Below, in pieces: positions 10,339 through 54,453 of a stretch of DNA of 64,000 bases (position 1 is the stretch's first letter; each line of letters opens with the position of its first letter). The position numbers and the translations under genes were made by a program. The DNA lies in IMG/VR virus record IMGVR_UViG_3300014204_000175, positions 6,784-70,783 of that record; one strand, given 5' to 3'. The stretch comes from a virus. Lineage: Duplodnaviria > Caudoviricetes. A model generated the notes under the pieces. It was not told the origin of the DNA. It ran no database searches and saw nothing but the letters and a program-made list of their open reading frames with translations.

Positions 10339-10350
10339 CTCCCGGCCTCC

Positions 10351-11394: not shown

Positions 11395-11436
11395 TTTGAT
11401 CTCCTTGAGATATTGTATAAAGTATAATCAAAGAAT

Positions 11437-14953: not shown

Positions 14954-14970
14954 TCCTTCTTTAAATTAAT

Positions 14971-15044
14971 AAAAAATAGCTGGTTGCCGATCGCCAGTCG
15001 GTGGTGTTCCTTTGGGACCGACCGACTAATCAGAACAACCAGCT
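14971..15044 (-). terminator. Long imperfect hairpin followed by a U-tract
   Basis: AGCTGGTTG/CAACCAGCT at 14978-14986/15036-15044 encloses AGTCGGT/ACCGACT. An A-tract at 14971-14976 gives the U-tract on the minus strand. Confidence 0.55.
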
Positions 15045-15269
15045 AAGCACTAGGCAACAAGGCCGACCGTACTCAAATCCAATAATATGATTGATTCATT
15101 ATTTCATTTTGTCCCTCCTTTTCTTTATTTGCATCTTCTTTTGGCACATATGCCGGGCGCCGAAGCTTTAAACTTTAAGCCAAAATATTCAAAGTGCATT
15201 TGAAAAAGGCTTTCCTCTGATCATTGCGTAATCACCTCCTTTTTTTGATAAATAAAACCTTTCAACTTT

Positions 15270-37282: not shown

Positions 37283-40200
37283 TTAAAGCCTCCCATAGAT
37301 TGTATTTTATTTGCAAAATTCCTTATCCCCTCTTCAAACATCCTTTTGTTTTCTGCTGGATTTCTCAGAACCGATGACGGATGAACACACCACAAAACAT
37401 AAATGCCCTTGCTCTCAACCCACTCCAAGGTTCCACTAAGTTTTGTTATTCCTCCATCTTCCCCTTTAAAATATTTTAGCGCGGTATTTCCTAATCCTAA
37501 GCACAATCTGGCGCCTGTCATTTTTATCTCTTTGTCCAACCATGTAGAACAGGACTCAATATGATCTGCCTTTGGCGTCTTAACTGGCCCCGGAAAACAT
37601 TTGCAAACATTTGTGACATGAAACCACCGTCTCGTCAACGAGTATTTAAACAGTTCTGCCCACAACAGTTTGCCAGCCTTTCCATAAAATCCCTTCCCCT
37701 CAGCATCTTCGTCGAAGCCTGGGGCTTCCCCGACAATCATAACGTTATATATCCCAAAAGATGGCAGAACCGGCTGGCGAGCATGATCTCTCAAGGCACA
37801 TCCCTTGCAACACAATAGCTCCGGATCTCGCCAGTGCTTTTTGATTGCATAGCAATCTGGCAATCTTGACTCAATTGGATTCAATATTCCAGATATGTCA
37901 AACCCAAAATATTTGGCCAAATCTCCTTTTGGATTATTCCCATCTGCGCCAATCTCTTCAATCAATTTCCCCATCTTCCCAGATGGCTGCCTTTCTGCCA
38001 GACAAAAAAAACCATCCCCGGTTGGTGGTTTATAACGAGCAATATCATCTGCCAACTTTGGCCCAACTCCTTTCACTTCAATAAACGGGACATAGATATT
38101 GCCATCCTTGACTACCCATTTATGTGCGTCAGATATTCCAAGCCTTGGCAAAACAACCTTCAGCCCAATACGTCGGGCCTCCTTAACCAACTCTTCTTTT
38201 TTCCCGTCAGATCCATATGTCAAATTTGCACAAATAAATTCGGCTGGGAAATACAACTTCAAAAATGCGCACCAGTATGAAATCATGGCGTACTCGACGG
38301 AGTGAGACTTGTTGAAACTGTATCTTGCATGGTTCTGAAGCGCCTCCCAAAACTCTTTTGCCTCCGCCACGGACAACGTGCCTTCCTTTTGACAACCCTC
38401 AACGAACATTTGTTCGTATTGGGCAAACTGTTTGGCATCCCGCTTTTTTGCAACAATCTTCCTTATTTTATCCGCCACCGTGTACGGTAGCCCCGCAACG
38501 AGATTTATTACCTGCATAACCTGCTCTTGGTACACAATAATGCCAAACGTATCTTTCGTTATCCTCTCATAAATACGATGCTTCTTGACCCATTTGGACC
38601 CATGTTTCCGTTTGGTAAAATCTGCTGTCATTCCGCTATCTGCGGGACCAGGTCTAACAAGAGCAACAACAGCCGACATCATGCCAAAATCTTCAACCCC
38701 AATTTCCTTGACCAACTTGGTTGTAGCCCAAGTATTGAATTGAAAAACGCCTACTGTTTCCCCTCTCGATAACATTTCAAAAACCTGATTGTTATCAAGC
38801 GCTATCTTATCAAAAACAATGTCGTGACCATGGTTCTGTTTGATTAATCGTTTTGCTTCTCCCAACACAGATAACGTACTGAGCCCAAGGGCGTCAAGTT
38901 TCATCAATCCGACATACTCTGCATCGTCCTTGTGCCAATTTACAACTTCCTGCTCTGACCGTACCGCCAAATTGCCCCTGGTGCCTTGAGTCAAATCCTC
39001 TGCGGAAACGATAAGTGCCGCTGCGTGCTGAGAAGTGCCCCGAATCTGCCCTTCCAACCGGATGGCATAATCAACAGCTTTGGGATATTTTTCTGTGAAT
39101 CTCAGCCCCTCTGGGGTGTCCTTTGCTGCCTGTTCCACTGAGTTATTATCATTTTCCTCGTCGAATATCGCCTTGGCAAATTCATCGACATCCTTGTATG
39201 GGATATCAAAAACCCTGGAAACATCACGAATAACCGCCCTGCCTTTCATTTTCATGAAAGTGGAAACCGACGCGATATGATTTTTTCCATACAATTCTTC
39301 AAGATGTTGACGAACCAATGGCCGTTTTGCATCTTCAAAGTCCATGTCTATGTCCGGATAATCTATGCGATTCTCATCAATAAACCTTGAAAACAAAAGA
39401 TCATACTTGATGGGGTCAACCGCAGTAATGCCAATCAAATAGGCTATCAAACTGCCGCCAACGCTGCCTCTTCCTGGCCCAACAAGGATGTCATTTGATT
39501 TGCACCACAAGACAAGCTCATGCACCAAAAGGAAATATCTGACAAACTTCTTCATTTCAATCAGTGCAAACTCCTCGCAGAACCTGTCCCAATAGGACTG
39601 ATCCCAATTACCTTCCCCAAACAAATTCCGATATCCTTCAAGACACAGTGTCTTCAAAAACAGACTTTCATCTACCTCTTGGACACCATATATTTCTGGT
39701 AGCCAGATATCCTTCTTTTTTATCTCAAATCCGGAGCACTTTTCGGCAACCAACATTGTATTGCGGCAAGCTGTCAGATATTGAGACTTCGACAAAATGC
39801 CTTGTTCGACAAAGGCCTCCTTCATTTCTCGTTCTGATCTCAAAAAAACCGTATCGATACCAAACTTGAAACGATTCTCGTCGTTCCATTTGGCCTTTGT
39901 TTGAATAGCAAGAACTACTTGGTGAAGATCGCTATCGTGACCATTAACATAATGGCAATCGTTTGTTGCAACAAGTCGGATTCCAACATTTTGAGAAATA
40001 TCTACGCACATCCGATTAATCTGGGATTGACTATCCAAAACATGAGGCATCACCTCAAGATAAAAATCCTCTCCCATCTTGGAAGCCAATGCCATCAAAA
40101 AATCCATTCCTACTGGCGAACGCAATGGAGACTGAGTACAACCAGACAGAAAGACCAGTCCTTCATGATGACTCAAAATGGTTTCAAAATCATTCCTTGG

Positions 40201-40533
40201 CTTGCGATAAAATCCTTGCAAATTGGCCATCGTCAACATCTTGCATAGATTTTGAAACCCGGTTTCATTTTTCACTAGTGCCGTCATATGAAATCGGACA
40301 GAAGATTTCCGATCCTTCATATCCGGAACAACATATAATTCACAGCCAAATATCGGCACGATGCCAGCCTTTTTCGCTTCGGTCTGAAATGTTATCAGTC
40401 CATCGATGTTGGCGTGATTTGTAAGCGCCAAGTGGGTCTGGCCCAACTCCTTGGCACGTTTCAAATAATCCTTGGCTTTGCCCAACCCATCTAAAATACT
40501 GTATTCATTATGCGTGTGGAGGTGACAAAACAT
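37279..40533 (-). CDS. dnaE: DNA polymerase III alpha with C-terminal family-4 uracil-DNA glycosylase domain
   Basis: PHP HLHTHNEYSILDG, GRGSVGGSL, PDIDMDF, KLDALGL and YSFNKSH; then CKGC.L...MIVGEAPG..ED..G..F.GKAG...TNVCKC...HPS (about 37282-37830). Confidence 0.95.
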   Translation of the reverse strand: MFCHLHTHNEYSILDGLGKAKDYLKRAKELGQTHLALTNHANIDGLITFQTEAKKAGIVPIFGCELYVVPDMKDRKSSVRFHMTALVKNETGFQNLCKMLTMANLQGFYRKPRNDFETILSHHEGLVFLSGCTQSPLRSPVGMDFLMALASKMGEDFYLEVMPHVLDSQSQINRMCVDISQNVGIRLVATNDCHYVNGHDSDLHQVVLAIQTKAKWNDENRFKFGIDTVFLRSEREMKEAFVEQGILSKSQYLTACRNTMLVAEKCSGFEIKKKDIWLPEIYGVQEVDESLFLKTLCLEGYRNLFGEGNWDQSYWDRFCEEFALIEMKKFVRYFLLVHELVLWCKSNDILVGPGRGSVGGSLIAYLIGITAVDPIKYDLLFSRFIDENRIDYPDIDMDFEDAKRPLVRQHLEELYGKNHIASVSTFMKMKGRAVIRDVSRVFDIPYKDVDEFAKAIFDEENDNNSVEQAAKDTPEGLRFTEKYPKAVDYAIRLEGQIRGTSQHAAALIVSAEDLTQGTRGNLAVRSEQEVVNWHKDDAEYVGLMKLDALGLSTLSVLGEAKRLIKQNHGHDIVFDKIALDNNQVFEMLSRGETVGVFQFNTWATTKLVKEIGVEDFGMMSAVVALVRPGPADSGMTADFTKRKHGSKWVKKHRIYERITKDTFGIIVYQEQVMQVINLVAGLPYTVADKIRKIVAKKRDAKQFAQYEQMFVEGCQKEGTLSVAEAKEFWEALQNHARYSFNKSHSVEYAMISYWCAFLKLYFPAEFICANLTYGSDGKKEELVKEARRIGLKVVLPRLGISDAHKWVVKDGNIYVPFIEVKGVGPKLADDIARYKPPTGDGFFCLAERQPSGKMGKLIEEIGADGNNPKGDLAKYFGFDISGILNPIESRLPDCYAIKKHWRDPELLCCKGCALRDHARQPVLPSFGIYNVMIVGEAPGFDEDAEGKGFYGKAGKLLWAELFKYSLTRRWFHVTNVCKCFPGPVKTPKADHIESCSTWLDKEIKMTGARLCLGLGNTALKYFKGEDGGITKLSGTLEWVESKGIYVLWCVHPSSVLRNPAENKRMFEEGIRNFANKIQSMGGFK

Positions 40534-40536
40534 ACA

Positions 40537-41592
40537 TCAATCCTTTGTCGCAATAATCAAAGCGAGTATGCATTCAAACGTGGCGCTTTTCATCAATATG
40601 TATTTGTTGTCCTTCAAGTAAAACTGATTCCCCAGTGCCAACAATGCGGCAAAATGTGCCGGTTGAACCTTTAATGTTACATCTTCTGGAAATGACCATT
40701 TGGCGTCCTTGACGATCTTGTCTTTGAGTTCTCCGTATTGTTTGGCGCCAGAAACAATCATATTTCCCTTGGCGTCAAGAGAAAGTTCAACATATTCAGA
40801 GCCTTCTTGTGTGGCAAAAGACATGACGCTTGCCCGTTCGATGGATTCCAATAATCCTGACGGGAAAACATATTGTTTCTCGTCTGTCTCGTCGAAATTC
40901 AGAAAATTCTTAATGGCGTCCCTGGGAAAATCGGCATTCAATTTACGAACACTAAACTGAAGCCCCGATTTTGCCTTGAAATGAACCCAAGATTCGCCAA
41001 CTGAAAATTCCTCAAGGTCTACAAATTTGATCAGCTCTTTCACAGATCCAATGGGCAAAACCAAATCTCCTTTGAGGGATCTGAATTCAAGCGGATAAAA
41101 CCCCGCCTTCATCCGGTCGCTGGCCGCCAAGCCATCCCTCGCAATAGATACCCCGCAAAGTGGCGTCATAGCCGTATTGGTGGTTGCGAACCCGCTGACA
41201 ATGGAAAGCGCGGACACGAAGTCTTTTGGCAATTTGTGCCATTTGACATCACCTAGCGCCAGATTGTCGACGAGCGACAAAATGGAAGAACTGTCTGACG
41301 ACACCATCTTCAAAACGGTTTTGCCTCCAGACATTTGAACCTTTCCATCATCCAACAAAATCATCTTAATTTCATCAGAATTGATTCGGGACAATACCCG
41401 GAAAAACTCCTGCGCTTTCACCAAACATTTGATGCCTGACTTGAAAGGATAAGAAACAGAAATCTCGTCATTAAAGGTTTTTATCCATTCGTCGTCGAAC
41501 ATAAATGAATTCGCCCCTTCCAACAACGTGTTCTTGTCTTCAACGCCAGACATAACCTTCTTTAAAACTCCCATCAACTCAGCTCTATTCAT
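40537..41592 (-). CDS. dnaN: DNA polymerase III beta-like sliding clamp
   Basis: 351 aa, adjacent to dnaE; N-terminal KTFNDEISV and ASDRMK (ATDGxR-like) motif; three-domain size. Confidence 0.75.
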   Translation of the reverse strand: MNRAELMGVLKKVMSGVEDKNTLLEGANSFMFDDEWIKTFNDEISVSYPFKSGIKCLVKAQEFFRVLSRINSDEIKMILLDDGKVQMSGGKTVLKMVSSDSSSILSLVDNLALGDVKWHKLPKDFVSALSIVSGFATTNTAMTPLCGVSIARDGLAASDRMKAGFYPLEFRSLKGDLVLPIGSVKELIKFVDLEEFSVGESWVHFKAKSGLQFSVRKLNADFPRDAIKNFLNFDETDEKQYVFPSGLLESIERASVMSFATQEGSEYVELSLDAKGNMIVSGAKQYGELKDKIVKDAKWSFPEDVTLKVQPAHFAALLALGNQFYLKDNKYILMKSATFECILALIIATKD

Positions 41593-41611: not shown

Positions 41612-43066
41612 TTATACTACCTCTCCGAGAAATTTGTGCGAATAATCCAAATCCCAAGACCTGTATTCATAAACCACATCTTCGTTCTGGTCAACGCCAA
41701 CAGGATGCATAACCCCGGCAAAATAAATGAACGGACTCCGTGGGTGATACGGATTGTTCCATTTGTTGCGCATGGCATCTCCGAACGTAAAATACTTTCT
41801 GACCCGCTTTGCGTGCCAGCCACCGCAATTATACATCTCAACTGCCCGTACATTATGAGCCCACTCAGGAGCCCAATCCGCGTATGTAACTCTTCGTCGT
41901 ATTCCCTTATCAAAATCCTTCTTCATTTCATGAACAACATTTGTCAACTGCCGACGACTCCAGTTGCCGAATATCGGGTCGTTGGGCAATATGCCGCAAC
42001 AACAGCCTGTGTCATTAAACTCCTTGAAGTGAGGATCGCTACAAGCGAAAACCATCCCCAGTTTATGGGCGTAGTCGCGTACCTTTGCCGTCATATCAAA
42101 CTTGTAGTCCCGGCTACCACGCCTGCAAGCTTCAACCGACCGGCTCATGGCATTCCATTTATCCCCAAACTTAACGTCGCCCATCGCCTTGAACATATTA
42201 TGATACATGATCTTCTGGCGAGTGGTTGGAGCACTCTCAAGGAAAATGAATTCAAAACTGACAGCCTTTGCCCCAGCATCTGCAGACTTGTCAAGCAAAC
42301 GCTGCCAGCCGTTATTGTGGTCAGACAGCCCCGGCAAGAATGGCCTGAAGCGCACACTGACCGGATGGCCAGCCTGAGCATATGCCTTCATCGCTGCAAA
42401 ACGTTCCGTTGCGTTTGGAGCCGCAACATCAACAGCCGTTAAAAGGTCATCATCGGCTGATATGATGCTGAACGCAAACCAGAAATGCTCTGGCGTCTTG
42501 TGAAAGGCGTCCCGGTATTCCTTCAACATCATTGTCTTTGCGCCTTTTGTACCAATACGCACCGGCTGCTTAAACCGCTGGAAAATAGGGATGGCCTTCA
42601 GCAGCCAGCCACTATGTTTTTCTATCTCGTCAAGCGGATCGCCAAGCGCACCAAGCTGGACAGGGCAACCCTGATTCAAAAGCGGATACATCGCTTTGGC
42701 AACGCCGCCCAATTCCCGGTTCAAGAATTTCTCCAGCCCGGAAATCTTCCATTCAGAATACAGCGTTCCTTTTTCAAAAAGCTTGCGGATTTTGTCCGGA
42801 TTGCGGTCTGGCGCCCTCATCAAATTATTGGCAAAGCAGTATTGGCAACCATAAGAACAGCCGCTGTGTGAGTCTAAAGATATTGGCAGGGCGCAATCCA
42901 TTGCATCACTGGTGAATCTTACCCCATTGTAATCTTGGGGCATAGGCACACTTAGGATCTCCTCACGCCGCTCATCAGAAACGTACGGGAGGCAAACGCC
43001 ATCTTTGCATAAATCAGCCATCCTTGATGGACAGCCCTTACAAACAAGGTGAAGATTCTCTCTCAT
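41612..43066 (-). CDS. Radical SAM enzyme 1 (SPL-like)
   Basis: DCALPISLDSHSGCSYGCQYCF (CxxxCxxC), DP, TK and RFRP motifs, late GCCCG. Confidence 0.9.
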   Translation of the reverse strand: MRENLHLVCKGCPSRMADLCKDGVCLPYVSDERREEILSVPMPQDYNGVRFTSDAMDCALPISLDSHSGCSYGCQYCFANNLMRAPDRNPDKIRKLFEKGTLYSEWKISGLEKFLNRELGGVAKAMYPLLNQGCPVQLGALGDPLDEIEKHSGWLLKAIPIFQRFKQPVRIGTKGAKTMMLKEYRDAFHKTPEHFWFAFSIISADDDLLTAVDVAAPNATERFAAMKAYAQAGHPVSVRFRPFLPGLSDHNNGWQRLLDKSADAGAKAVSFEFIFLESAPTTRQKIMYHNMFKAMGDVKFGDKWNAMSRSVEACRRGSRDYKFDMTAKVRDYAHKLGMVFACSDPHFKEFNDTGCCCGILPNDPIFGNWSRRQLTNVVHEMKKDFDKGIRRRVTYADWAPEWAHNVRAVEMYNCGGWHAKRVRKYFTFGDAMRNKWNNPYHPRSPFIYFAGVMHPVGVDQNEDVVYEYRSWDLDYSHKFLGEVV

Positions 43067-43320
43067 TTTCCCGCCTTCCTGACCAATTCGGCCAGCGCCA
43101 CCGCATTCATATCCGGATGGGATTTGACGTGAATATTGTTCCGGGCCAACTTGGACAAGACGAGGTTGTAGTCGTCATCATTGTCAAAATAGAATATGAG
43201 AAATTTCCTCAGCCCATGATCCGTTTTACCGTTGATGCTCTCTGGGAAAAAGAACAGACCGTCCTTGCTTTTCAACTCCTTGTCCGTATCATCAATACGG
43301 GAGTAATCGCCCTTTGCCAT
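43063..43320 (-). CDS. Hypothetical protein
   Basis: 85 aa with AGGAGG RBS. Confidence 0.6.
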   Translation of the reverse strand: MAKGDYSRIDDTDKELKSKDGLFFFPESINGKTDHGLRKFLIFYFDNDDDYNLVLSKLARNNIHVKSHPDMNAVALAELVRKAGK

Positions 43321-43328
43321 ACAACCTC

Positions 43329-44075
43329 CTATTTGTAAGAATAAATATCGTTAACCTTAATTGGGTTGAGCTTTGTCTTGAAACGATAAAGTTCTTGGTT
43401 ATCCAAACATCCACCGTCGTTTACAAGCTTGTTGATCAATGGGTCAGTGTAAAACAGCAGCCGCATGTATTCACTCAGGTGCTGCCCCGGCTTGCAAAAG
43501 CAATACCTGAAATTGATGTACATATAATTTTCATCCCAGATATTGACACCATACACTTCGCCATTGTCGTCAGTTAGAATCTTGACGTTTTGCCCTGACT
43601 CCATGTATTTTATCATTGTCTCATCATCGACAATGACCCGTTCCTTTTCGCTTAACCATTCAACAAGAACCTCTGATAAATCGTCGTCTGGTTGAACCGG
43701 CCTGTATTGTAGCCGTAGGTCAGGATTGCGATTGACAAACTTGCGGGAGTTTTTTCTGAATGTTTGCCAGTCGCCGCCAGCAAGATCAAAAAACCGTTTC
43801 GGGTCATATATAAAATTGTAATCCAAAAATTGAAGAGCAAATTGAGTTCCCCCAAGCGTTCCCAACGTAGCCCAAACGCTGGCATTCCCCAAATACACCT
43901 CTCCGCCAGTAGTGTCTATCGGCGGCAACATAACTACATCTTCATCAAAGACATAGATTGCATCACCGTCCCAACAAACCTGCCAACCGGCCTTTTGAAA
44001 ATATTCCTCTGAGCACCAGAAATTCGGTTCAATCCCAAACATTTTCAGCGCTTCAAGGTAATCATTTGTTGCCAT
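43329..44075 (-). CDS. DUF2156 / MprF C-terminal-like GNAT-fold transferase
   Basis: DYNFIYD...DLAGGDWQTFRKNSRKF and VNDGGCLDNQELYRFKTKLNP match the DUF2156 pattern (Y.Y...L..L.G......R...N.F ... N...D.G..GL...K....P). Confidence 0.7.
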   Translation of the reverse strand: MATNDYLEALKMFGIEPNFWCSEEYFQKAGWQVCWDGDAIYVFDEDVVMLPPIDTTGGEVYLGNASVWATLGTLGGTQFALQFLDYNFIYDPKRFFDLAGGDWQTFRKNSRKFVNRNPDLRLQYRPVQPDDDLSEVLVEWLSEKERVIVDDETMIKYMESGQNVKILTDDNGEVYGVNIWDENYMYINFRYCFCKPGQHLSEYMRLLFYTDPLINKLVNDGGCLDNQELYRFKTKLNPIKVNDIYSYK

Positions 44076-44199
44076 CTAAATCCAATCCTTGCGTCTTTTC
44101 CGATTCTTTTTTTGCAAGATTTTTTACAACCTTGCCGCTTTTTATCCTATCAATCAGCTTCTTGGATATCTGCCCACTTTTACGACTTTTGCCCCCCAT
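44062..44199 (-). CDS. Small basic protein (45 aa)
   Basis: Not in the ORF track. MGGKSRKSGQISKKLIDRIKSGKVVK..., GGAGG RBS. Confidence 0.5.
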   Translation of the reverse strand: MGGKSRKSGQISKKLIDRIKSGKVVKNLAKKESEKTQGLDLDGNK

Positions 44200-44200
44200 T

Positions 44201-44911
44201 TCACCCTCCCACAACTCCCAACGATCCGAGTTCATCAAAAAGACACCATGACAAAATGCCTTTCATACCGCTTGTTTTGGCTTCAACAATAAAATAATTC
44301 AGCCCCGGCGCAAATGCAAATGAAAGCTCCTTGTCTTCAATAAACAGAGCCTCCAAATCCGATAAGCGCAACCCCATTGGCTCAAACGGTTCAACATTAT
44401 CTGTTTCAAAAAATAGCCCAGAACGATCTTTTTCTATTTCTATTATAGTCCCAGAAAAGATATCTCTCTGAATTATTTTAACACCATTGTCGTAATGAAT
44501 TTCCACATGACTCAAATCATCTTGCAGAAAAGCAAGAATAGCCTTATTCAAGGAAAAATGAGAAGCGGCCTTTTTCCGACTGAGTTTGTAATACAATTTT
44601 GATATGGTTTCAAAATCCAGTTGCTTGTTCGTTCCACATTTCTTTTTCTTGATATAGCCGTCCGCAGCTGTCTCAAAGATCAATGCCCCATCTTTTGTGT
44701 AGAAGTTTGACGACTCATAGTCGTTGACATCAAAAACGATACGCTCCTTGAATTCAGCACTGGTCTTTTTCAAGACAAAGCTCAACAATATCGTCCTGTC
44801 AAAGTTGATGATGAACACTTCCCTTTCAGAACAAAGGATGGTGTTTTTCATCTTCCCCGACTGATCCAGTGCCGCAGCATATTTAAATATGTCTTCCCTA
44901 TCTTTTTCCAC
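44201..44911 (-). CDS. Hypothetical protein (beta-rich, possibly clamp-like fold)
   Basis: 236 aa, no recognised motif. Confidence 0.6.
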   Translation of the reverse strand: MEKDREDIFKYAAALDQSGKMKNTILCSEREVFIINFDRTILLSFVLKKTSAEFKERIVFDVNDYESSNFYTKDGALIFETAADGYIKKKKCGTNKQLDFETISKLYYKLSRKKAASHFSLNKAILAFLQDDLSHVEIHYDNGVKIIQRDIFSGTIIEIEKDRSGLFFETDNVEPFEPMGLRLSDLEALFIEDKELSFAFAPGLNYFIVEAKTSGMKGILSWCLFDELGSLGVVGG

Positions 44912-45143
44912 TTAATCCCTCCTCAGTTTTCTTTTTCCAACCACCAAACCGCTCGTTGTAGCATTCTCTGCAAAGACCACGACCTTCTGTGTCATTTGGG
45001 TCATTGCTCACAGCATAAAATTCAGAAAGTTCCTTGTTCATCCCGCATGATCCTGGGCCTTGACAACGCTTTGTTGCTATACCATCTTCAAACAAAAGGA
45101 AATCCAATGGCGCTGGTTGAACCATCCTTCTTGGCGCAATCAT
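44898..45143 (-). CDS. Small Cys-containing hypothetical protein
   Basis: 81 aa; CxxxxxC...LCxxC. Confidence 0.55.
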   Translation of the reverse strand: MIAPRRMVQPAPLDFLLFEDGIATKRCQGPGSCGMNKELSEFYAVSNDPNDTEGRGLCRECYNERFGGWKKKTEEGLSGKR

Positions 45144-46567
45144 ATCACCCTCCTTAACATTTCCTCCCGGAAATCATGATCCTTGTCGAATGCCCAAACC
45201 AATCCATCCTGATCCTGACCAACGGGCAAAAGACCTGCCGCATGGTCAAGGGAAAAAGAAGTGTCTCCACAAATGTTCCACAACTGCTTCACTTCATTCT
45301 TAAATACAGATGAAAGGAAGCCGTTTTTCCCTTCAACGCGACTTGCGAAGTCCCCCCAACTTGTCTTCTGTTTGCCCCGGCCAACGATGAAACGAATGGC
45401 GCTTGTTGTATTTCCAAGGCAGAACCGATCCAGCCCAAATAGGTCGCTAACAGAACAGCAAACAGGATCATCATTGAATGGTACATTCCCTGCATCAAAT
45501 GTGGAACACTGAAGACCAGCCTTCCGAAAATAATCCATATATTTACTCAATAGTAAAGATCCAAGCCACTGTGCCCGCGACATGATCTCATACATACGCT
45601 CAAAGTCGTGGCCCAAGCGCGCAAAATTATTTTTGATCCCTGTGCCCGCAGCCGAATAACTATATGTGTCAAACGTCATGTGCGTTATTCCAGCATCCAA
45701 TATTTGCCGGATATAGTCATCAGTCATGCCCTTATCGTCATTCAGAAAAACCATGAATGGTTCTATCCGGGCAACAACCCGCACCCCGGCATCGCAGAGA
45801 TTCTTGGCGCCCCGGATGCGTTCCTTAAACTTTGGTGCTCCCGGCTCAATGCCTTTCAGAAAAACCTCGTTTGATGAAATCATTGTGATGTGGACTGCCG
45901 ACCCAGCTTTGTTTGACGCAAATGCCTTGACGTATTCATCGTCTCCCACCAGATCAGACTTGGTATTGACCATCATTGGATATTCATTCTCTGCCAAATA
46001 ATCCAGCATGTCAAGGGCAATGCGGTGCTTTGTTTCTATCGGTCTGACGAAATCCTCAAAACGGATGCCAAGCCTCATTGGCATTTCCATAGAAATTGCT
46101 TTGGCGACATCATTTAAACCATCTTTCTTTGATCCCCGATTTTTGAAAAGGATGTCGAGTTCCTTGCGGAAAAAGGCTGGACTGCAAACCCTCATCCCCA
46201 TGCCTTTTGTATTGTCAAAAAAAGAACTGTAAAGTGACGCTCTGGCATAATCAGCAAAACAATACGAGCAATGGTACGGGCAGAGCTTTGAATCATATAT
46301 GTCCAAATTTAGAGACATTGGGCAAGCTTGAGAGCGCAAACTGACTTCGATGAACGATTGCATTTCTTCCAGATTCAAATTGCGCTCTTTTTTCGCCATT
46401 TCTCCCTTCTCAATATTGAACTGAAAATAATTTGATTTACGACCCTTTTCCTTGACCAAACTTTGTTTATCCTTTTGGGCAAGGAATACGCCCATCCTCG
46501 GCACCAACTTTGCTACTTGTTGTCTTAATTCCCAATAATCGGCCACTATCACGCTCCTATATTCCAA
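45140..46567 (-). CDS. Radical SAM enzyme 2 (SPL-like)
   Basis: ACPMSLNLDIYDSKLCPYHCSYCF, NTKS, IEPGAP, RIEPF and late VCCS. Exact start uncertain. Confidence 0.9.
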   Translation of the reverse strand: MEYRSVIVADYWELRQQVAKLVPRMGVFLAQKDKQSLVKEKGRKSNYFQFNIEKGEMAKKERNLNLEEMQSFIEVSLRSQACPMSLNLDIYDSKLCPYHCSYCFADYARASLYSSFFDNTKGMGMRVCSPAFFRKELDILFKNRGSKKDGLNDVAKAISMEMPMRLGIRFEDFVRPIETKHRIALDMLDYLAENEYPMMVNTKSDLVGDDEYVKAFASNKAGSAVHITMISSNEVFLKGIEPGAPKFKERIRGAKNLCDAGVRVVARIEPFMVFLNDDKGMTDDYIRQILDAGITHMTFDTYSYSAAGTGIKNNFARLGHDFERMYEIMSRAQWLGSLLLSKYMDYFRKAGLQCSTFDAGNVPFNDDPVCCSVSDLFGLDRFCLGNTTSAIRFIVGRGKQKTSWGDFASRVEGKNGFLSSVFKNEVKQLWNICGDTSFSLDHAAGLLPVGQDQDGLVWAFDKDHDFREEMLRRVI

Positions 46568-46596
46568 AACAGTATTGGTTCTTTAAACTCAATATT

Positions 46597-46625
46597 ACTA
46601 TACCCCGTTTTTCTAAAATCTCTGA
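46597..46625 (-). promoter_or_regulatory. Putative internal promoter (GATTTTAGAAAAACGGGG-TATAGT)
   Basis: Resembles the other intergenic motifs in this window. Confidence 0.4.
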
Positions 46626-46640
46626 CAAATCTACAAGTAA

Positions 46641-47645
46641 TTATTCCTGCGGCATTGGATAGTGCTCATCCAACTCATCAATATCTTCCTGCGACAAAAT
46701 CAACTTTGCTGCCTCCATATTGATTCTTAGGTGGTCAAGATCATTTGTCCTTGGTATCGGGACAACGCCTGGCATCCGTAAAATCCAAGCCAAAGCGACT
46801 TGCGATGTCGTGGCATCATGTCGTTTTGCTATTTCAGTTAAAACTGGCTTATTCATTTTTTTAAAATCCTGCCCAAGCGGACTGTATGCAATAACTATAA
46901 TACCACGGGCCTGACAATATGGAAGCAAACACGATTCGATTCTCCTGTCGAGCAAAGAATAACTAACCTGCACGGACTGTATAACATCCCCAGAATAATC
47001 GGATAAAAAACGCTGCATACTCTCAATCATATCGACAGAACAATTTCCCAACCCAAAAGAAGAAATTTTTCCAGACCTCCGCAGATCAACCAAAATCTTT
47101 CCCAATGTTTCATTAGAGTACGATTCATTGGGGAAATGTATTTGTAAATGAGGAGAAATGCCAAGCTTCCCGATTGAACGATCAACAGCCGACCTGAAGG
47201 CCAATTGACTCATGTGATCCCGTCTAATTTTCGTAGATACAACAACAGGATTTTCCAATTTGCAAATTGTTTTCCCCAGCTCTGTCTCAACTCTGCCGTA
47301 ACCATAACCCTCAGCTGTATCAATCAATGACACACCAAGATCCGCTGCCATTTCAATTATTCGATAATCATACTTCCACCCATAGGTTCCCAACCCTACT
47401 GAAAAACTAGGAAGTGGCCGTGGACGACAGCCAATATCAGATAAATCCAAAAGGCTTTTGACCCGGCAAATTGAATAATCAATCATTCTCTGCCGATCTT
47501 TTTTCAAGCAATCATTTACTGTAGTGTAGCGATAGTTCAAGCCCCACATAGATCCGTGAAGGGTATCTGCGGTAAATGGTCCTGACAACACAGACTTACC
47601 TTCTTTCAATGCTTCCAATTCTTTCAGAACTTCTTCCCAGATCAT
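46641..47645 (-). CDS. Aldo/keto reductase
   Basis: VGLGT, IDTAEGYG.G..E..LG, STK, GKI..FGL.N, Q..YSLLDR, IAYSPLG and SQVALAW...PIP. Confidence 0.92.
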   Translation of the reverse strand: MIWEEVLKELEALKEGKSVLSGPFTADTLHGSMWGLNYRYTTVNDCLKKDRQRMIDYSICRVKSLLDLSDIGCRPRPLPSFSVGLGTYGWKYDYRIIEMAADLGVSLIDTAEGYGYGRVETELGKTICKLENPVVVSTKIRRDHMSQLAFRSAVDRSIGKLGISPHLQIHFPNESYSNETLGKILVDLRRSGKISSFGLGNCSVDMIESMQRFLSDYSGDVIQSVQVSYSLLDRRIESCLLPYCQARGIIVIAYSPLGQDFKKMNKPVLTEIAKRHDATTSQVALAWILRMPGVVPIPRTNDLDHLRINMEAAKLILSQEDIDELDEHYPMPQE

Positions 47646-48367
47646 AGATCAAGAAATCCTTCCAGCTTCACAAAAGCAGAATCTTTGTATGGCTTGATCC
47701 CTCTACACAATGACAATTTTGATGGGGGGACATATTCAATTTCTTTCCCATCTGCAAATCCATACAAGACAATTGCTGAATTGCTAAATGAAGAAACGGC
47801 CAAAACTCTCTTCCCTCCTAAAACCGATCTCATCTCCTTGTCCAACAGCTCATAATACTCGTGTTCTGTTTTTATTCCATAATGCTTGATATTTCCAAAC
47901 TTGAACCCAAAACAAGCGCTATCCGCAATCATAAGAAACCTGGTTGTTGGCGCAATGCGTTCCAAGGGGCCTATGTGTTGGTGCAATTTCCGAAGCGTAA
48001 AAGCATCAAAGTCAAGAAAAAAGACATCTGATTCAGGAGGTTCCCAAAGATTTATATCATTTGCTTGGATGTTTTGATTCTGGAAATTCTTTTTCAAAAT
48101 ATCAAAACAAGCAGTATCAGATTCGTTCATTATAAGATTGCAATCAGGCCAATGATTGAGGAAAACTGCCCCCCAAAACCCTGATCTTGATATCCCATCA
48201 ATCACCCGCAACCCATTCTTGATAGGAATTTTGGCAATGACAGCATCAAGATTTCTGCATGTTTCTGCACAATCCCTCCAAGAAACTACTTGGTGCGGCG
48301 TCCAGCCAACCTTCCTGCCTCCGCCATCGGGAATATTCAACCTATAGCTGCCAATAGTATAAATCAT
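47642..48367 (-). CDS. Putative SAM-dependent methyltransferase-like Rossmann protein
   Basis: VIDGISRSG (motif I-like), IMNESD, ANDI and VFFLDFD (motif IV-like, lacking DPPY). Confidence 0.45.
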   Translation of the reverse strand: MIYTIGSYRLNIPDGGGRKVGWTPHQVVSWRDCAETCRNLDAVIAKIPIKNGLRVIDGISRSGFWGAVFLNHWPDCNLIMNESDTACFDILKKNFQNQNIQANDINLWEPPESDVFFLDFDAFTLRKLHQHIGPLERIAPTTRFLMIADSACFGFKFGNIKHYGIKTEHEYYELLDKEMRSVLGGKRVLAVSSFSNSAIVLYGFADGKEIEYVPPSKLSLCRGIKPYKDSAFVKLEGFLDL

Positions 48368-49419
48368 AATTCAACGTCCCCCATTGTATAAAAATCATTC
48401 GACTTTCCCAACATAATCAACCTTGCCATTTCTTTGTCTTGTTCTGCACCAATCCCCTCCCAGGAACTGGCCAATATTTCCTCCTGGCTCATGAGCCCAT
48501 TCTGTAAACAGATCTTCCATTGATGGGTATTGAAAGTAAATGCTCCAGGAACATCAACTCCACAACATGTATTTGTTCTCGATCGCCAACCTTTCGGGGT
48601 ATTAACAAAATCAGGGCAACCCAAAATTATCCCCTCTTCGTCTGCAATTCGGCACAAATCTCTTTGAATTGGTCTCCAGAACTCATCCTGGTTGTAATGC
48701 CAAATCTTCTCAATGTCCATTCCGGCATCATGCAAACGGCGCATTGTGTAGGCGTTAACGTGTAAATTATATGTATTATAGGACTTAAATCCAAATGATT
48801 TGACCCGACGGATGGTATTGCGAAATTGAGCAAGTGTATGATAACCAGGGATGAATGGTTCTCCCCTTACACCAACAGCCACACCCTTACGCATCCATTT
48901 AGACGCTATCTCAAGCCGGTCTGAGACACAAGGAGTCCGCCTCCGCTCAAATATTTCCCAATCACTTTCCATTCCTGGAGTAATTTCTACCAAAAAAGTC
49001 AAAAGATTTTTGGCCTTAATAAAAAGAGATTCGTCACGATCGGCATTAGGAATATAACGAGAACAAATGATAAATTGTTGTTTGAAATGTATGAATGTAT
49101 GAATGTATGATCTTGTTATCTCCAATTCCATCTCTATTGGTTGATATGGATCGGATTTCCGGCCAACCCAAATAGCTTTTTTTAATTTTAGCGCAACAGA
49201 CAATGGAGACTTGCCATTGTTTTTGCTTGCCGATATGAATTTCTGTCTTACTTTTTCAGGATCGGCAATTCTTTGTTCCTCTCCCCATATTCGATTAAGA
49301 TTGCGCCCCATACAATGCAAACAATCGGCTTCACAATTCCAATAGGCTTCCAAAGTCAAAGGAAGGGGACAATTTAAATGGGTATTCCGGATGCAAAAGG
49401 GGTTTTTGTATTCTATCAT
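48364..49419 (-). CDS. Radical SAM enzyme 3 (SPL-like)
   Basis: NCPLPLTLEAYWNCEADCLHC, GRKSDPYQP, RGEPFIP and late TCCG. Confidence 0.88.
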   Translation of the reverse strand: MIEYKNPFCIRNTHLNCPLPLTLEAYWNCEADCLHCMGRNLNRIWGEEQRIADPEKVRQKFISASKNNGKSPLSVALKLKKAIWVGRKSDPYQPIEMELEITRSYIHTFIHFKQQFIICSRYIPNADRDESLFIKAKNLLTFLVEITPGMESDWEIFERRRTPCVSDRLEIASKWMRKGVAVGVRGEPFIPGYHTLAQFRNTIRRVKSFGFKSYNTYNLHVNAYTMRRLHDAGMDIEKIWHYNQDEFWRPIQRDLCRIADEEGIILGCPDFVNTPKGWRSRTNTCCGVDVPGAFTFNTHQWKICLQNGLMSQEEILASSWEGIGAEQDKEMARLIMLGKSNDFYTMGDVEL

Positions 49420-49435
49420 TCTGGTATCATCTATA

Positions 49436-49471
49436 TTTTTGAGGGAGTGTTTTTATGCACTCCCTCAAAAA
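49436..49471. terminator. Rho-independent terminator, bidirectional-type
   Basis: TTTTT-GAGGGAGTG-loop-CACTCCCTC-AAAAA. Confidence 0.8.
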
Positions 49472-49495
49472 TTTGATCTGGTTGCAAAAAAACAT

Positions 49496-50041
49496 TTAAG
49501 CAGGAAGGATGTTATTGCCATCAACCCTTACTTTCCCGAATCTGATGGCGACGGGCATCATAACACTAATCAGATGCTTTGTCTGCTTTGCATTATCCTT
49601 TCCTCCCGATGCCATATAATCATTGTTTGTTGCAATGACAAGCTCATCAATGGTACAAGCCCCCTTCAACTGATTAATAGAATCGCAGAAAGACTCGACT
49701 CTGGTTTTTCCTCTCAGGGGTTTCTCTTTCTTGACCTTCGGTTCTTTGGGTGCTTTTGGTTCCTTTTTTGCTTTCTCTGCCTTGGGAGGCTTTTCTGCCA
49801 CTTCCTCGGCAATCGTAATTGCCTGATAATAAACCGCTGCCGCTTCCGGACCGGTCCAATTCCCCTCATCATCATCCGGGATGGCCTGGACATTTTCCAA
49901 GAAGGATTTGATCAAGTCGTCTTTGGACTTGCCAACCGTGATGATTTTGTTTTCCAGTTTCCCGCTGTCATTGAGTTCCTTGATGGCCTTTGCCAACTCT
50001 TTGAATTTGATCTTTTCTACTTCGATTGTTTTGACTGGCAT
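49496..50041 (-). CDS. Hypothetical Lys/Glu/Pro-rich protein
   Basis: Start moved to MPVKTIEV (AAGGAG RBS); KAPKEPK linker suggests DNA binding. Confidence 0.6.
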   Translation of the reverse strand: MPVKTIEVEKIKFKELAKAIKELNDSGKLENKIITVGKSKDDLIKSFLENVQAIPDDDEGNWTGPEAAAVYYQAITIAEEVAEKPPKAEKAKKEPKAPKEPKVKKEKPLRGKTRVESFCDSINQLKGACTIDELVIATNNDYMASGGKDNAKQTKHLISVMMPVAIRFGKVRVDGNNILPA

Positions 50042-50076
50042 TGTTTCGCTCTCCTTTTTGTATTTTTGCAATATGG

Positions 50077-50343: not shown

Positions 50344-51873
50344 TTAATTTATTTTGACGTACTCGTCGTCCAGGAACGGCTGACCCAATGCAAATGACTG
50401 TAATACCATCGCTTCTCCAGAAAAAGAAAACTCTTCGTGACGGTGAGCAATAACACTAATCCTTGAAACACCCTGTTCCTTTTCTTCTGGTTTTTGATTA
50501 ATCGCCAGCAATAAATCCACGTGGGCACCCTTTCTAATGTCCTCTGCAGTATCTTCCTGCTCCAAATTCTTTTTGCTAATAGATTTTCTATTGCTTTGAA
50601 GAACGGTAGCCACTAAACAATGGCGCTTGGATGCCTGACCCTTTCCCCTCTTCCAAACATAATCAGAAACTCCACGTTCAGAAAGTCCACCAACGCCTCC
50701 TCCAGGATTAGAAATATCAAAATAATCGTAGGCAATAACATCTGGAATAAACCCACCCTGAGACTCCAACTCATCAAGATCCCTTTCAGCGTCATCAAAA
50801 GATGCCGAAAAAGCTGGATATGCCATCACCCGCAAATTGTTGCCGTACAGCATCCTGAAATCTTTTACCTTCCTCGCGACAGTTCTGGAATCAAATTCCT
50901 TTACTTGCCGCTGAACCGACCACCAGGTGGCAACCTCATATTGACCGTTTTTTGTTCCTCTGCAAGCCGTACATGGTTTGTAACCATCGAACTTTTTGAA
51001 TTCTGGGGTGGGAGCTGCCGGCGCTTTAATCGCGACATCACAGACCCGTCCTTGTCGTTTGCACGTCCCATCCTGATTCCGTTGACAATCAAATATGGGG
51101 AACTTGTGATCGCCGGTTTTTGATGCCAATGCAGAAAGTCGTTTGTATAATCGTTTTGATACGGCATTGCGGTTCATTTCAAATGAAAAATAAGCCACCT
51201 TCAAACCATTCATCAATGCGTGAATTGCCAATTCCTGTAACCACCAAGACTTTCCCCTCTTAAGGGGAGCCATAAATGCAACCAACCAATCGCGTTCCAG
51301 ATCACCAACCATTTCTCCAAGTGCTCCGGAAAAACGGAAAAGCTTATTCGACTCGTCGTCTTGAAAAACCGTATCAACAGCAGATACCTCAAGCGGATTG
51401 AACCAATTGCTAATATCCTTTGATATTCTATTAAAATTCCTAATCTCCGCTTCGGCCTGGTCAACCCGGCCCTTGGCAACTTCTCCGCTTATTTTCTCAG
51501 CCAACAAAACCAGCGCCCTTTGCCGGAAATAATCACGCGATTGGTCAACAAGTAACGCATAGTTGGCCTTTTTCTCTGCTTCATATTGATCCGACAAATT
51601 GGACAGAAAAACCTTAATCAATTCCGCATCAGCTGAATTCAAGCCATCTTTTTCAACCGCGAATATATTTTGGATTTCTTTGCCTGGAGCTTTTTTGTAG
51701 AGTTTGAAATAATCAGCACACCAGAGAAAAACTTGACGTGAAAAATCACCCTTGAAATATTGCTTCTTTGCCATTTTTGTTAACTGGCTACAATAATTGT
51801 CGTCTGTTATGAGTCCTGTTATAATCCTTTTTTCTATTTCCGCATTGATGATATTCCTACGAATCGAAACCAA
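50344..51873 (-). CDS. Replicative DNA helicase, DnaB-like
   Basis: Walker A APLKRGKS, FSFEM, DVIAYDY, QSNR and AEDIRK...D motifs. Confidence 0.88.
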   Translation of the reverse strand: MVSIRRNIINAEIEKRIITGLITDDNYCSQLTKMAKKQYFKGDFSRQVFLWCADYFKLYKKAPGKEIQNIFAVEKDGLNSADAELIKVFLSNLSDQYEAEKKANYALLVDQSRDYFRQRALVLLAEKISGEVAKGRVDQAEAEIRNFNRISKDISNWFNPLEVSAVDTVFQDDESNKLFRFSGALGEMVGDLERDWLVAFMAPLKRGKSWWLQELAIHALMNGLKVAYFSFEMNRNAVSKRLYKRLSALASKTGDHKFPIFDCQRNQDGTCKRQGRVCDVAIKAPAAPTPEFKKFDGYKPCTACRGTKNGQYEVATWWSVQRQVKEFDSRTVARKVKDFRMLYGNNLRVMAYPAFSASFDDAERDLDELESQGGFIPDVIAYDYFDISNPGGGVGGLSERGVSDYVWKRGKGQASKRHCLVATVLQSNRKSISKKNLEQEDTAEDIRKGAHVDLLLAINQKPEEKEQGVSRISVIAHRHEEFSFSGEAMVLQSFALGQPFLDDEYVKIN

Positions 51874-53614: not shown

Positions 53615-54310
53615 TTAATTTTCCTTCAATTTATCGTGAAATTTTCCGTGACAAAATTCGCACAATACTATTAAATCATTTTTTATGTTATACCCGTCCA
53701 ATTCTTGGCCTCTGCGTTCATAAGTTTTGTGATGAACATTTAAAATGTCCTTATTAGAATTGCAAACGCCGCAACGGTATCCAGATAATTTCAATGCCCT
53801 CCTTCTAACTCCTTTCCAATGATTTGTTTCAAGATATTGGGAATAAGGCATACTTTTCAAAATCAATATTTGTTCTTCCTGCAGTAATTGCGCCCTCTTT
53901 CTTTCCTTCGCTGCGGACTCTCTCAATCTGCTCGTTTCCCTTTTGCACTCAGCACAAGAAAAATAATGATTTCCCGTCTCTTTTTGTTTTAACAACTTTT
54001 TATATTCTGTAATCGACTTGTATTCCACCCGTATTGGGGATTTGCATGCAAAGCAGTCAAAACTCATTGCCCTGTCTGACGATATAATAGATTTCATTTC
54101 TTTGTAAGATAAATTGCAACAATTGATAAAAAACGAAAGAGGAAAATACTTTCCCCAATAAAGTTCTTTGACAAATTCATAATCATTTGGAAATTCGTTT
54201 AGGTGGCAAGCGGCCAAATCCTCTGCTACAGATTTGAGCCGTTCTATTCTGTCTTGAAGTCTGCTTATTTTAATGAAGCAATCATAAATATTTTCTCTTT
54301 CGTTTGCCAA
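53615..54310 (-). CDS. HNH endonuclease domain protein
   Basis: C-terminal YLETNHWK..RR......RCGVC...NVHHKTY...LCEFCH. Probable TTG start downstream of GGAGG. Confidence 0.8.
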   Translation of the reverse strand: MANERENIYDCFIKISRLQDRIERLKSVAEDLAACHLNEFPNDYEFVKELYWGKYFPLSFFINCCNLSYKEMKSIISSDRAMSFDCFACKSPIRVEYKSITEYKKLLKQKETGNHYFSCAECKRETSRLRESAAKERKRAQLLQEEQILILKSMPYSQYLETNHWKGVRRRALKLSGYRCGVCNSNKDILNVHHKTYERRGQELDGYNIKNDLIVLCEFCHGKFHDKLKEN

Positions 54311-54330
54311 AGCTATTTTATCGCCTCCAT

Positions 54331-54453
54331 AAAATAAAAAACCCTTTACGGCTGGACTCAAGATCATCGTAAACAGACAGACATACGACGAACTTGATTT
54401 TCCGGACCAAGATCGTCAGAAACCAACGACCTTGAGTCCATGCGTAAAGGGTT
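54331..54453 (-). promoter_or_regulatory. Large structured leader / attenuator
   Basis: Nested inverted repeats AACCCTTTACG/CGTAAAGGGTT (54340-54350/54443-54453) and TGGACTCAAG/CTTGAGTCCA (54353-54362/54431-54440), followed by a U-tract and then an RBS. Confidence 0.6.

Follow-up and report, generated by a model that had tools for sequence, protein, structure and literature searches.

How could a phage begin to decorate the bases of its DNA if it carries none of the enzymes with which the known pathways start? The question is raised by a block of genes in a virus of the Caudoviricetes, represented in IMG/VR by a record of 70.8 kb (IMGVR_UViG_3300014204_000175). The stretch of DNA which was analysed, here called the window, has a length of 64,000 nucleotides and comprises bases 6784-70783 of that record. 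The block occupies positions 41612-49419 of the window with all its genes on the minus strand and with replisome genes on both sides; eleven open reading frames (ORFs) lie between the genes for a DnaB-like helicase and a 191-residue protein and those for a clamp and DnaE. The gene content is as described in an earlier sequence-only reading of the DNA: three radical S-adenosylmethionine (SAM) proteins (rSAM1, rSAM2 and rSAM3), an aldo-keto reductase (AKR), a methyltransferase (MTase)-like protein, a DUF2156-like transferase and small ORFs. We consider it rather probable that the block serves to hypermodify the bases of DNA after replication and that it is composed of two separable modules, in which radical SAM proteins of the type of spore photoproduct lyase (SPL) and of gp53 of phage M6 replace the known entry enzymes.

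Hypermodifications of phage DNA defeat restriction and CRISPR, and DNA chemistry obtains enzymes from this source. To our knowledge all described routes which append amino acids or sugars to thymine start from 5-hydroxymethyldeoxyuridine (5-hmdU), made by a hydroxymethylase or by an oxygen-dependent dioxygenase, and continue with activation by a kinase. Phage M6, a Yuavirus, makes 5-(2-aminoethyl)-deoxyuridine by means of a dUMP hydroxymethylase, the 5-hmdU DNA kinase gp54, the amino acid:DNA transferase (AADT) gp51, the pyridoxal phosphate (PLP) decarboxylase gp52 and gp53, an isomerase of the radical SAM type (Lee et al., 2021; PMC8989533). The decarboxylase acts on an amino acid-thymine conjugate in DNA. 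The substrate of the SPL-like gp53 is N-alpha-glycinylthymine in DNA, which it isomerises, and no other radical SAM protein is known to build a DNA hypermodification (PMC8989533).

The radical SAM paralogs and their relation to phage M6

The three radical SAM proteins of the window all match phrog_13321. When they are compared by BLASTP, rSAM1 and rSAM2 give an E-value of 5e-16 over their full length, rSAM1 and rSAM3 8e-9, and rSAM2 and rSAM3 3e-4; the profiles of the three subfamilies aligned against each other with hhalign give 1e-30, 7e-25 and 6e-17. By these values the three are true but distant paralogs, as the sequence-only reading had proposed. It had also called the arrangement of cysteines unusual, and the arrangement is conserved in every subfamily. 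The CxxxCxxC motif is invariant within each of them (C70/C74/C77 in rSAM1, C96/C100/C103 in rSAM2, C29/C33/C36 in rSAM3), a lone cysteine is found 12-14 residues before it (C58, C82 and C17, respectively), and a CC doublet comes late in the protein (C356-357, C370-371 and C285-286); rSAM2 and rSAM3 have an additional cysteine 16-17 residues ahead of this doublet. The extra conserved cysteines would provide ligands enough for a second metal site. The upstream cysteine is also found in the gp53 clade of M6.

An hhalign comparison of the gp53 clade with the three subfamilies gave probabilities of 96.7-98.5% and E-values between 3e-10 and 2e-15 (1.9e-15 for rSAM1 and 3.7e-11 for rSAM3). The profile A1 matches gp53 with 91%, and gp53 itself, taken from the M6 genome, matches phrog_13321. 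The BLASTP E-value to gp53 is 0.44 for rSAM2 and 2e-4 for rSAM3, and the window proteins match only phrog_13321 and not the gp53 family phrog_9252. They are remote homologs of gp53 and not its orthologs; the relationships of the sequences were analysed with a MAFFT alignment and a FastTree tree. True gp53 orthologs (39-43% identity) are present in three of the metagenomic loci (L049, L059 and L065), where they lie beside a gp52-like PLP gene and an AADT gene, and where a gene of the rSAM1 family is found too.

A homolog of gp52 enters the picture through the relatives of the window. In the sister phage L004, whose rSAM1 is 88% identical to that of the window, and in L011 there is a PLP gene which is 37% identical to M6 gp52 over the full length (E 1e-45) and belongs to the same phrog_7093; in L004, as in many other loci, the gp52 homolog is located between rSAM3 and rSAM2. 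No gp52-type PLP decarboxylase is present in the window, which has the MTase-like protein and the AKR in its place. The block thus resembles the M6 pathway in its gp53-homologous SPL-like radical SAM proteins, in the gp52 homolog of the sister-phage operon, in being a gene cluster with swappable tailoring enzymes, and in the amino-acid-derived chemistry which it would imply. It differs from that pathway in being without a dUMP hydroxymethylase, TET/JBP, 5-hmdU kinase and AADT, and in what it adds, namely a third radical SAM protein, a transferase of DUF2156 fold, a peptide with an invariant N-terminus and a PCNA-like clamp of its own.

Among curated families the best sequence matches are SplB and the uncharacterised COG1533-type families PA0069 and Rv2578c, which share a radical SAM TIM-barrel clade with the proteins of the block. 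The scores for rSAM1, rSAM2 and rSAM3 are 63.9, 44.1 and 38.3 bits against PA0069 (NF033668, cut-off 360 bits) and 56.6, 45.6 and 16.8 bits against Rv2578c (NF038135, cut-off 430 bits), and only rSAM1 matches spore photoproduct lyase (TIGR03886, cut-off 437 bits), with 15.3 bits and an E-value of 0.0088. The chemistry of SPL takes place at the thymine methyl group, in duplex DNA. The phage proteins differ from all three families by their extra conserved cysteines, their C-terminal regions and their biosynthetic context. Searches of PDB sequences with the radical SAM proteins gave nothing useful, and M6 gp53 is itself without a solved relative; one match, 8VPO, a cyclopropyl synthase of ribosomally made, post-translationally modified peptides (RiPPs), was discarded since it covers the cluster motif only.

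The radical SAM genes are often interrupted by mobile insertions. In the divergent locus L112 the rSAM2 gene (region 883-2730) contains a HINT/intein insertion and GIY-YIG homing endonuclease genes are inserted in the module, a 1.4-kb interruption is found in rSAM2 of L095-L098 (in L095 within the region 9770-12579), and Intein_splicing domains are present in rSAM1 homologs including P0039 and P0084.

Two separable modules and the search for entry enzymes

A search of IMG/VR with a profile of the transferase gave 108 relatives, of which 80 loci were kept, and occupancy was counted in the 59 loci with at least 6.5 kb upstream. The genes for rSAM2 and for the protein with a clamp fold were each found in 56 of them, the gene for the replicative clamp lies directly downstream in 56, and rSAM3 is present in 41. 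A PLP enzyme occurs in 26 loci, the MTase-like protein in 9 and the AKR in 7; the pair formed by rSAM1 and s85, a protein of 85 residues, occurs in only 3. If the genes between the conserved ones are considered as a slot, it is filled by the PLP enzyme in 24 loci, by the MTase-like protein together with the AKR in 6, and in a mixed way in the remainder. Of the 30 loci which are bracketed by DnaB, 29 show the tailoring genes in company with rSAM3. All 12 homologs of the MTase-like gene in IMG/VR are inside such a module and without rSAM1; ten are accompanied by an AKR gene, and the other two loci end at a contig edge.

From these counts we define module 1 as rSAM2, the clamp-fold protein, the peptide and the DUF2156-like protein, usually with rSAM3 and the variable slot. 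By gene content rSAM2 is the invariant radical SAM protein of this core, and the MTase-like protein and the AKR are a swappable accessory tailoring cassette present in a minority of loci. Module 1 recurs in one position, between DnaB and the clamp and polymerase genes, inside the replisome operon. The window carries the core module, the tailoring extension (rSAM3, MTase-like, AKR) and s85/rSAM1, and this combination is rare. The sequence-only reading had asked for conservation of the neighbourhood and had proposed a multi-step pathway. The genes do co-occur, in about 100 related phage loci, but the existence of two separable modules means that they need not form one pathway. In the divergent L112 no MGGKSRK peptide was found; an insert of about 3 kb between its clamp-fold and transferase genes encodes a protein of 159 residues (7422-7901) with a zinc-finger-like segment and a PP-binding domain.

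The second module belongs to a large family. There are 127 homologs of rSAM1, and more than 344 relatives in IMG/VR. Among relatives with at least 42% identity, s85 is found directly upstream in the 9 related loci which carry it, and the rest of the block is usually missing. In 84 loci of the rSAM1 family a ParB_N-like gene of about 210 residues lies directly upstream in 59, a gene for a TET-associated glycosyltransferase (TAGT) is present in 28 and an AADT gene in 11; further neighbours are a rSAM-SPASM gene, 5-hmdU kinase, P-loop kinase 3, gp52-like PLP, Asn-synthase-like and SAM synthetase genes and, once, Mom. A recognised hypermodification gene is found within six genes of the rSAM1-family gene in 44 of the 84 loci. 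These neighbours point to a role in DNA modification. By this distribution s85 and rSAM1 form a separable second module, and rSAM1 belongs to a large phage family. Distant rSAM1 homologs have a ParB-like neighbour, and to the C-terminal portion of this protein s85 shows a weak profile match (hhalign 76%, E 2e-5), which is a lead only for its being a ParB-like C-terminal domain.

Some of these neighbours deserve a description of their own. In L006, a phage-like contig from a metagenome-assembled genome of the Desulfobacterales, a Mom-family gene (11928-12677; PF25680, 9e-29) is located two genes downstream of s85-rSAM1 and adjoins N6/N4 MTase, Asn-synthase-like and PAPS-reductase-like genes. 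Some rSAM1 homologs (P0104 and P0120, of about 800 residues) are fused to an Asn_synthase domain (PF00733), and four loci have a separate Asn-synthase-like gene next to rSAM1 (among them L006 at 14425-15255 and L023 at 9073-9891). This is a hint that some variants include an amidation step which depends on ATP. In four loci, one of them L076 (11256-12110), the gene immediately downstream of the rSAM1-family gene resembles SAM synthetase, and this fits a high demand for SAM.

The neighbourhood of the rSAM1 family is the same as that of a group of enzymes with a different chemistry. A subclass of the phage thymine dioxygenases (5mYOX/TET-JBP clade C1) has to be activated by a ParB-like protein and shows linkage to P-loop kinases and AADTs (O'Toole et al., 2026; PMC13229309). 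Both groups have ParB_N-like proteins, P-loop kinases, AADT and glycosyltransferases as neighbours. The dioxygenases belong to the Fe(II)/2-oxoglutarate superfamily, whereas the rSAM1 family is radical SAM, and in the lineage of the window the upstream partner is the protein of 85 residues and not a full ParB-like protein.

Known entry enzymes were searched for in the window record (G000) and in related genomes. No thymidylate synthase (TS)-type hydroxymethylase (PF00303), 5-hmdU kinase or ADDT was found in G000-G003, no TET/JBP (PF12851) or P-loop kinase 3 in G000, G001, G004 and G005, and no member of the 5-hmdU DNA kinase and amino acid:DNA transferase families PF18748, PF18751 and PF18724 in the lineage of the window. 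The complete sister genome of 91.7 kb (G001) is without TS-like, HMUDK, ADDT, TET/JBP and P-loop kinase 3 genes. The earlier statement that hydroxymethylase and 5-hmdU kinase are absent from the window can be extended to the 70.8-kb record and to AADT and TET/JBP; no search was aimed at PurZ or Que/DpdA, which the statement had included. As positive controls, ADDT was found in M6 and in three loci, the hydroxymethylase in M6, and TET/JBP in Synechococcus phage S-CBWM1, directly beside a TAGT homolog. Within 29 records of the rSAM1 family, 12 of them complete, TET/JBP was found in none and a thymidylate-synthase homolog in one, and several of these records, four of them complete, encode AADT or hypermodification kinases. 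Such enzymes need 5-hmdU.

The control phage S-CBWM1 (L181, MG450654.1) gave an observation in its own right. Its gp8 (3729-6061), annotated as a 'putative SNF2 DNA repair protein', holds the TET/JBP domain (E 3e-20) and is followed directly by gp9, whose annotation is hypothetical and which is the only homolog of the TAGT gene found in a cultured phage; sugar-nucleotide genes adjoin. The gp8-gp9 region is probably a DNA glycosylation cluster of a cultured cyanophage.

The block has no counterpart in the phage records of GenBank: blastn with the block and tblastn with rSAM1, rSAM2 and a distant member of the rSAM1 family gave zero matches in 50,697 records. Searches of the literature turned up no paper which connects DUF2156, aminoacyl-tRNA or a sliding clamp with the hypermodification of phage DNA, nor any on the making of 5-hydroxymethyluracil by radical SAM enzymes. 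The metagenome survey by Lee et al. was anchored on 5-hmdU kinases (PMC8989533), and a kinase-free module could therefore not have been recovered by it.

The other proteins of the block and its flanks

The coordinates of the block and its flanks are collected in Table 1. The protein of 236 residues which is invariant in module 1 was compared with PDB structures through its AlphaFold2 (AF2) model. All top Foldseek matches are clamps (E 1e-9), the VIA Z-scores are 14.9 to Rad9, 14.0 to PCNA and 13.2 to the beta clamp with 200-211 of the 236 residues aligned, and 532 of 990 chains reach a Z of at least 8, all 50 listed chains being clamps. The model predicts a clamp fold of the PCNA/9-1-1 type, and with it the module would have a second clamp of its own, distinct from the replicative processivity factor encoded in the flank.

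Table 1. Positions in the window of the genes of the block, its flanking genes and one structural element
Feature	Coordinates	Strand	Basis or remark
DnaB-like helicase	50344-51873	-	upstream flank
191-residue protein, Lys/Pro/Ala-rich linker, histone H1/Hc1-like composition	49496-50071	-	upstream flank
15-bp perfect hairpin	~49436-49473	-	between 191-residue protein gene and rSAM3
rSAM3, 351 residues, SPL-like radical SAM	48364-49419	-	NCBIfam PA0069 7.6e-10; phrog_13321 6e-8
MTase-like protein, 241 residues	47642-48367	-	ESM Atlas structure neighbours; NCBIfam weak, 0.0019
AKR, 334 residues, ~80-residue N-terminal extension	46641-47645	-	Pfam PF00248 1.2e-41
rSAM2, 475 residues, SPL-like radical SAM	45140-46567	-	NCBIfam Rv2578c 4.7e-12; Pfam Radical_SAM 28.6 bits
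81-residue protein, CX5C...CX2C	44898-45143	-	sequence pattern
Predicted two-domain sliding-clamp-fold protein, 236 residues	44201-44911	-	AF2 pLDDT 81
45-residue Lys/Gly-rich peptide, N-terminus MGGKSRKxGxxSxxL	44062-44199	-	reannotation of 58-residue ORF 44062-44238
DUF2156-like transferase, 248 residues	43329-44075	-	AF2 pLDDT 94
s85, 85-residue partner of rSAM1	43063-43320	-	next gene upstream of rSAM1 in 10 loci, the window among them
rSAM1, 484 residues, SPL-like radical SAM, N-terminal 4-Cys segment	41612-43066	-	NCBIfam PA0069 1.2e-17
Beta-clamp-like replicative processivity factor	40537-41592	-	phrog_947 6e-24; flank, outside module
DnaE	37279-40533	-	downstream flank

The gene for the transferase follows after a small ORF. 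The model of the DUF2156-like protein has VIA Z-scores of 20.7 to 2hqy (244 residues, rmsd 3.1), 14.9 to the synthase domain of MprF, 12.5 to Sbb17 and 12.2 to FemX, and the tandem-GNAT fold of these proteins extends over the whole phage protein. In sequence it scores 20.6 bits (E 2.7e-4) against PF09924, which is below the cut-off of 27.5, and its profile matches the PDB entry 2hqy with 7.6e-4; it has at least 144 homologs, mostly on phage-sized contigs, and several of these carry the PF09924 assignment. The model points to a soluble tandem-GNAT protein of the DUF2156/MprF-C/FemX fold, and such an enzyme probably transfers an amino acid from aminoacyl-tRNA. Set against these known proteins it is soluble, short with its 248 residues and without a membrane domain, and its gene is located in a replisome operon next to the clamp-fold gene. 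A relationship to Mom was considered and rejected (hhalign probability 0.2%). No tRNA gene and no Rfam family was found in the window, so no phage-encoded tRNA donor is available there.

The small ORF between the clamp-fold and transferase genes is best read as a peptide of 45 residues rather than 58. Its start is located 2 nucleotides past the stop codon of the clamp-fold gene, and its end overlaps the start of the transferase. In 68 of 78 loci the next gene upstream of the DUF2156-like one encodes the MGGKSRK peptide; the 50 distinct sequences are invariant at positions 1-7, 9 and 15. The 81-residue protein is possibly a zinc ribbon; its homologs are confined to two other contigs (L004/L101, which are one contig, and L103), and it is lineage-restricted.

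The AKR reaches 143 bits against a PF00248 cut-off of 24 and has the motifs of the D-Y-K-H tetrad (IDTAEGYG, STK and IHFP). The ESM Atlas model of the MTase-like protein (pLDDT 0.71) has TM-scores of 0.6-0.7 to class I amino-methyltransferases, with enzymes of the tRNA(Ade37-N6) and Trm1 type as neighbours, and there is no Pfam match. The model supports a class I methyltransferase fold with nucleic-acid amino-methyltransferases as the nearest relatives, and this at the level of fold only. Seen against the sequence-only reading, the AKR was correctly recognised, the DUF2156-like GNAT is borne out by its fold with a sequence score below the Pfam cut-off, and the MTase-like assignment is supported at the level of the predicted fold, with no match in Pfam and a weak one in NCBIfam. 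Of the four small ORFs to which that reading gave no function, one is now predicted to be a PCNA-like clamp and one is the peptide with the invariant N-terminus, and both belong to the conserved core.

In the upstream flank, the 191-residue protein has two small globular ends joined by a linker of KAPKEPK type. It is conserved directly upstream of rSAM3 in a part of the lineage (13 of the 59 loci), and it has no match in Pfam or PHROG. The hairpin (dG -23.6 kcal/mol, z -6.0) had been read as a terminator at 49436-49471. The strong hairpin is there, but it is not a canonical intrinsic terminator: the stem is without a trailing U-tract and is absent from the output of the terminator scan. It may be a transcript boundary or a processing element.

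Two observations concern replication genes outside the block. The DnaE of the window is fused to a domain resembling uracil-DNA glycosylase (UDG), and such fusions of a replicative polymerase, DnaE-UDG or PolA-UDG (PF03167 with PF07733 or PF00476), also occur at L005 13534-16089 and L006 17032-19362; the fusion is retained by relatives which switch the type of polymerase. A gene for an HNH endonuclease, probably a homing endonuclease, lies between the replication-initiator and primase genes (53615-54367, minus strand).

A model for the block and its rivals

The invariance of the clamp-fold protein in the core argues for a DNA polymer as the substrate. The model postulates that in module 1 the enzymes are kept on freshly replicated DNA by the dedicated clamp. 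One radical SAM protein would activate a C-H bond of a base, most plausibly at the C5-methyl group of thymine, and would thereby run the final step of spore photoproduct lyase in the opposite direction. The extra cysteine site may accept an electron, allowing water or another nucleophile to add. The tandem-GNAT transferase would then supply an amino acid from aminoacyl-tRNA, and rSAM3, a candidate for a gp53-like isomerase or tailoring enzyme, would together with the slot enzymes tailor the appended group. In most relatives the slot would be filled by a gp52-type PLP decarboxylase, and the MTase-fold protein and the AKR of the window would give a reduced and/or methylated variant. In module 2, s85 and rSAM1 would probably make a 5-hydroxymethyl-pyrimidine, or an equivalently activated base, on DNA and without oxygen. 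The rSAM1 family occupies the genomic niche of the ParB-dependent thymine dioxygenases and could be their oxygen-independent counterpart. A more specific version hypothesizes that the rSAM1 family, together with a ParB-like protein or s85 as its partner, makes 5-hydroxymethyluracil or a directly trapped thymine-methyl intermediate on duplex DNA, and that rSAM2 and rSAM3, the clamp and the aminoacyl-tRNA transferase attach an amino acid to DNA; in that case charged tRNA and a private sliding clamp would serve DNA modification for the first time. This version we put forward as a tentative possibility. We infer that DNA is the substrate and aminoacyl-tRNA the donor, and likewise the target base, the function of the peptide, the succession of the steps and the product. 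The earlier proposal of an undescribed multi-step base hypermodification pathway fits in its core with the comparative evidence, which is the co-occurrence of the genes, the homology to gp53 and gp52, the neighbouring genes and the entry enzymes which were not found; the step order given there and DNA as the acceptor are still proposals.

Several points weigh against this model. The chemistry is deduced from genes, folds, homologies and co-occurrence. In the Pfam family Radical_SAM (PF04055, cut-off 29.5 bits) rSAM1 scores 28.2 and rSAM2 28.6 bits and rSAM3 has no match, and none of the three comes near the curated cut-off of any named family; radical SAM homology is supported by NCBIfam and by profile comparisons instead of by Pfam. 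The completeness of the source record is only 77% by the IMG/VR estimate. The counts of co-occurrence overstate the independent support, the loci being related by descent and chosen via the query genes. Most loci with module 1 are without rSAM1 and most rSAM1 loci are without module 1, and joint action of the two is not required. An aminoacyl group derived from tRNA would be linked via its carboxyl group and is not obviously a free-carboxylate substrate for a gp52-type decarboxylase. Finally, the invariant N-terminus of the co-translated peptide suggests that the peptide, and not DNA, could be the acceptor of the transferase.

This last point leads to a RiPP-like model, in which the transferase acylates the MGGKSRK peptide at the glycine which becomes N-terminal when the methionine is removed, and in which the radical SAM, PLP, AKR and MTase-like enzymes then remodel the appended residue, the product being not a modified base but a modified peptide or a released small molecule, for example an anti-defence factor or a DNA-binding peptide. 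The translational coupling of the conserved peptide to the transferase speaks for it, as do the relatives FemX, Sbb17 and N-myristoyltransferase (NMT), which acylate peptide amines; complexes of NMT with GGKS-type peptides are among the structural neighbours of the transferase, with Z about 9, and in the divergent variant in which no MGGKSRK peptide was found a carrier-like PP-binding protein is encoded in the insert between the clamp-fold and transferase genes. However, the radical SAM proteins are of the SPL/gp53 type, with neither SPASM nor the RiPP recognition element (RRE) detected in them by Pfam and NCBIfam scans, and no protease or exporter was seen in the module. The peptide model also leaves aside that a PCNA-fold protein is an invariant member, that the slot enzyme is homologous to the DNA-acting gp52 of M6 and that the module is located in a replisome operon, and a Lys/Arg-rich peptide is equally plausible as an adaptor binding DNA or the clamp. 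We regard this model as unlikely.

Repair or damage tolerance would require that the SPL-like proteins reverse photoproducts or other lesions, recruited by a 9-1-1/PCNA-like clamp, with the other genes as passengers. The nearest curated families are indeed of the 'DNA repair photolyase' type (COG1533-like PA0069/Rv2578c, and SPL with 0.0088), JGI labels the homologs 'DNA repair photolyase', the clamp-fold protein finds its best match in Rad9, a part of the 9-1-1 checkpoint clamp, and recombination and repair genes surround the module. These scores are nevertheless far under the cut-offs (for SPL 15 against 437 bits), and a strict co-occurrence with an aminoacyl-transferase fold, a gp52-type PLP enzyme, AKR or MTase is unexpected for repair. 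Furthermore, the rSAM1 family adjoins AADT, 5-hmdU kinase, TAGT and Mom genes, and three paralogs in one operon suggest sequential chemistry; repair is very unlikely. Modification of deoxynucleoside mono- or triphosphate (dNMP/dNTP) pools, or of RNA or tRNA, would explain why the MTase-like fold is nearest to tRNA amino-methyltransferases and would make use of the binding of tRNA by DUF2156-type enzymes, the fold then reflecting tRNA as a bound substrate and the clamp-fold protein being a second part of the replisome. Many phage modifications are made at the monomer level, but the module comes without a nucleotide kinase, a dNTP pyrophosphatase or a hydroxymethylase, the window is devoid of tRNA genes, and the only characterised relatives, gp53, gp52 and SPL, act on DNA polymers. 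To this possibility we give hardly any weight. Both repair and monomer or RNA modification are less likely because of the biosynthetic partners in the block.

DNA base hypermodification is thus the reading which we prefer, and the block is part of a system which is widespread in IMG/VR, with 80 loci of module 1 and more than 344 relatives of the rSAM1 family, and which is without the known starting enzymes where these were searched for. If the model is true, it would represent a new, oxygen-independent functionalisation of DNA bases, a new use of aminoacyl-tRNA and a modification machine tethered by a clamp. A large set of the 'DNA repair photolyase' annotations in viromes would then receive a function as well.

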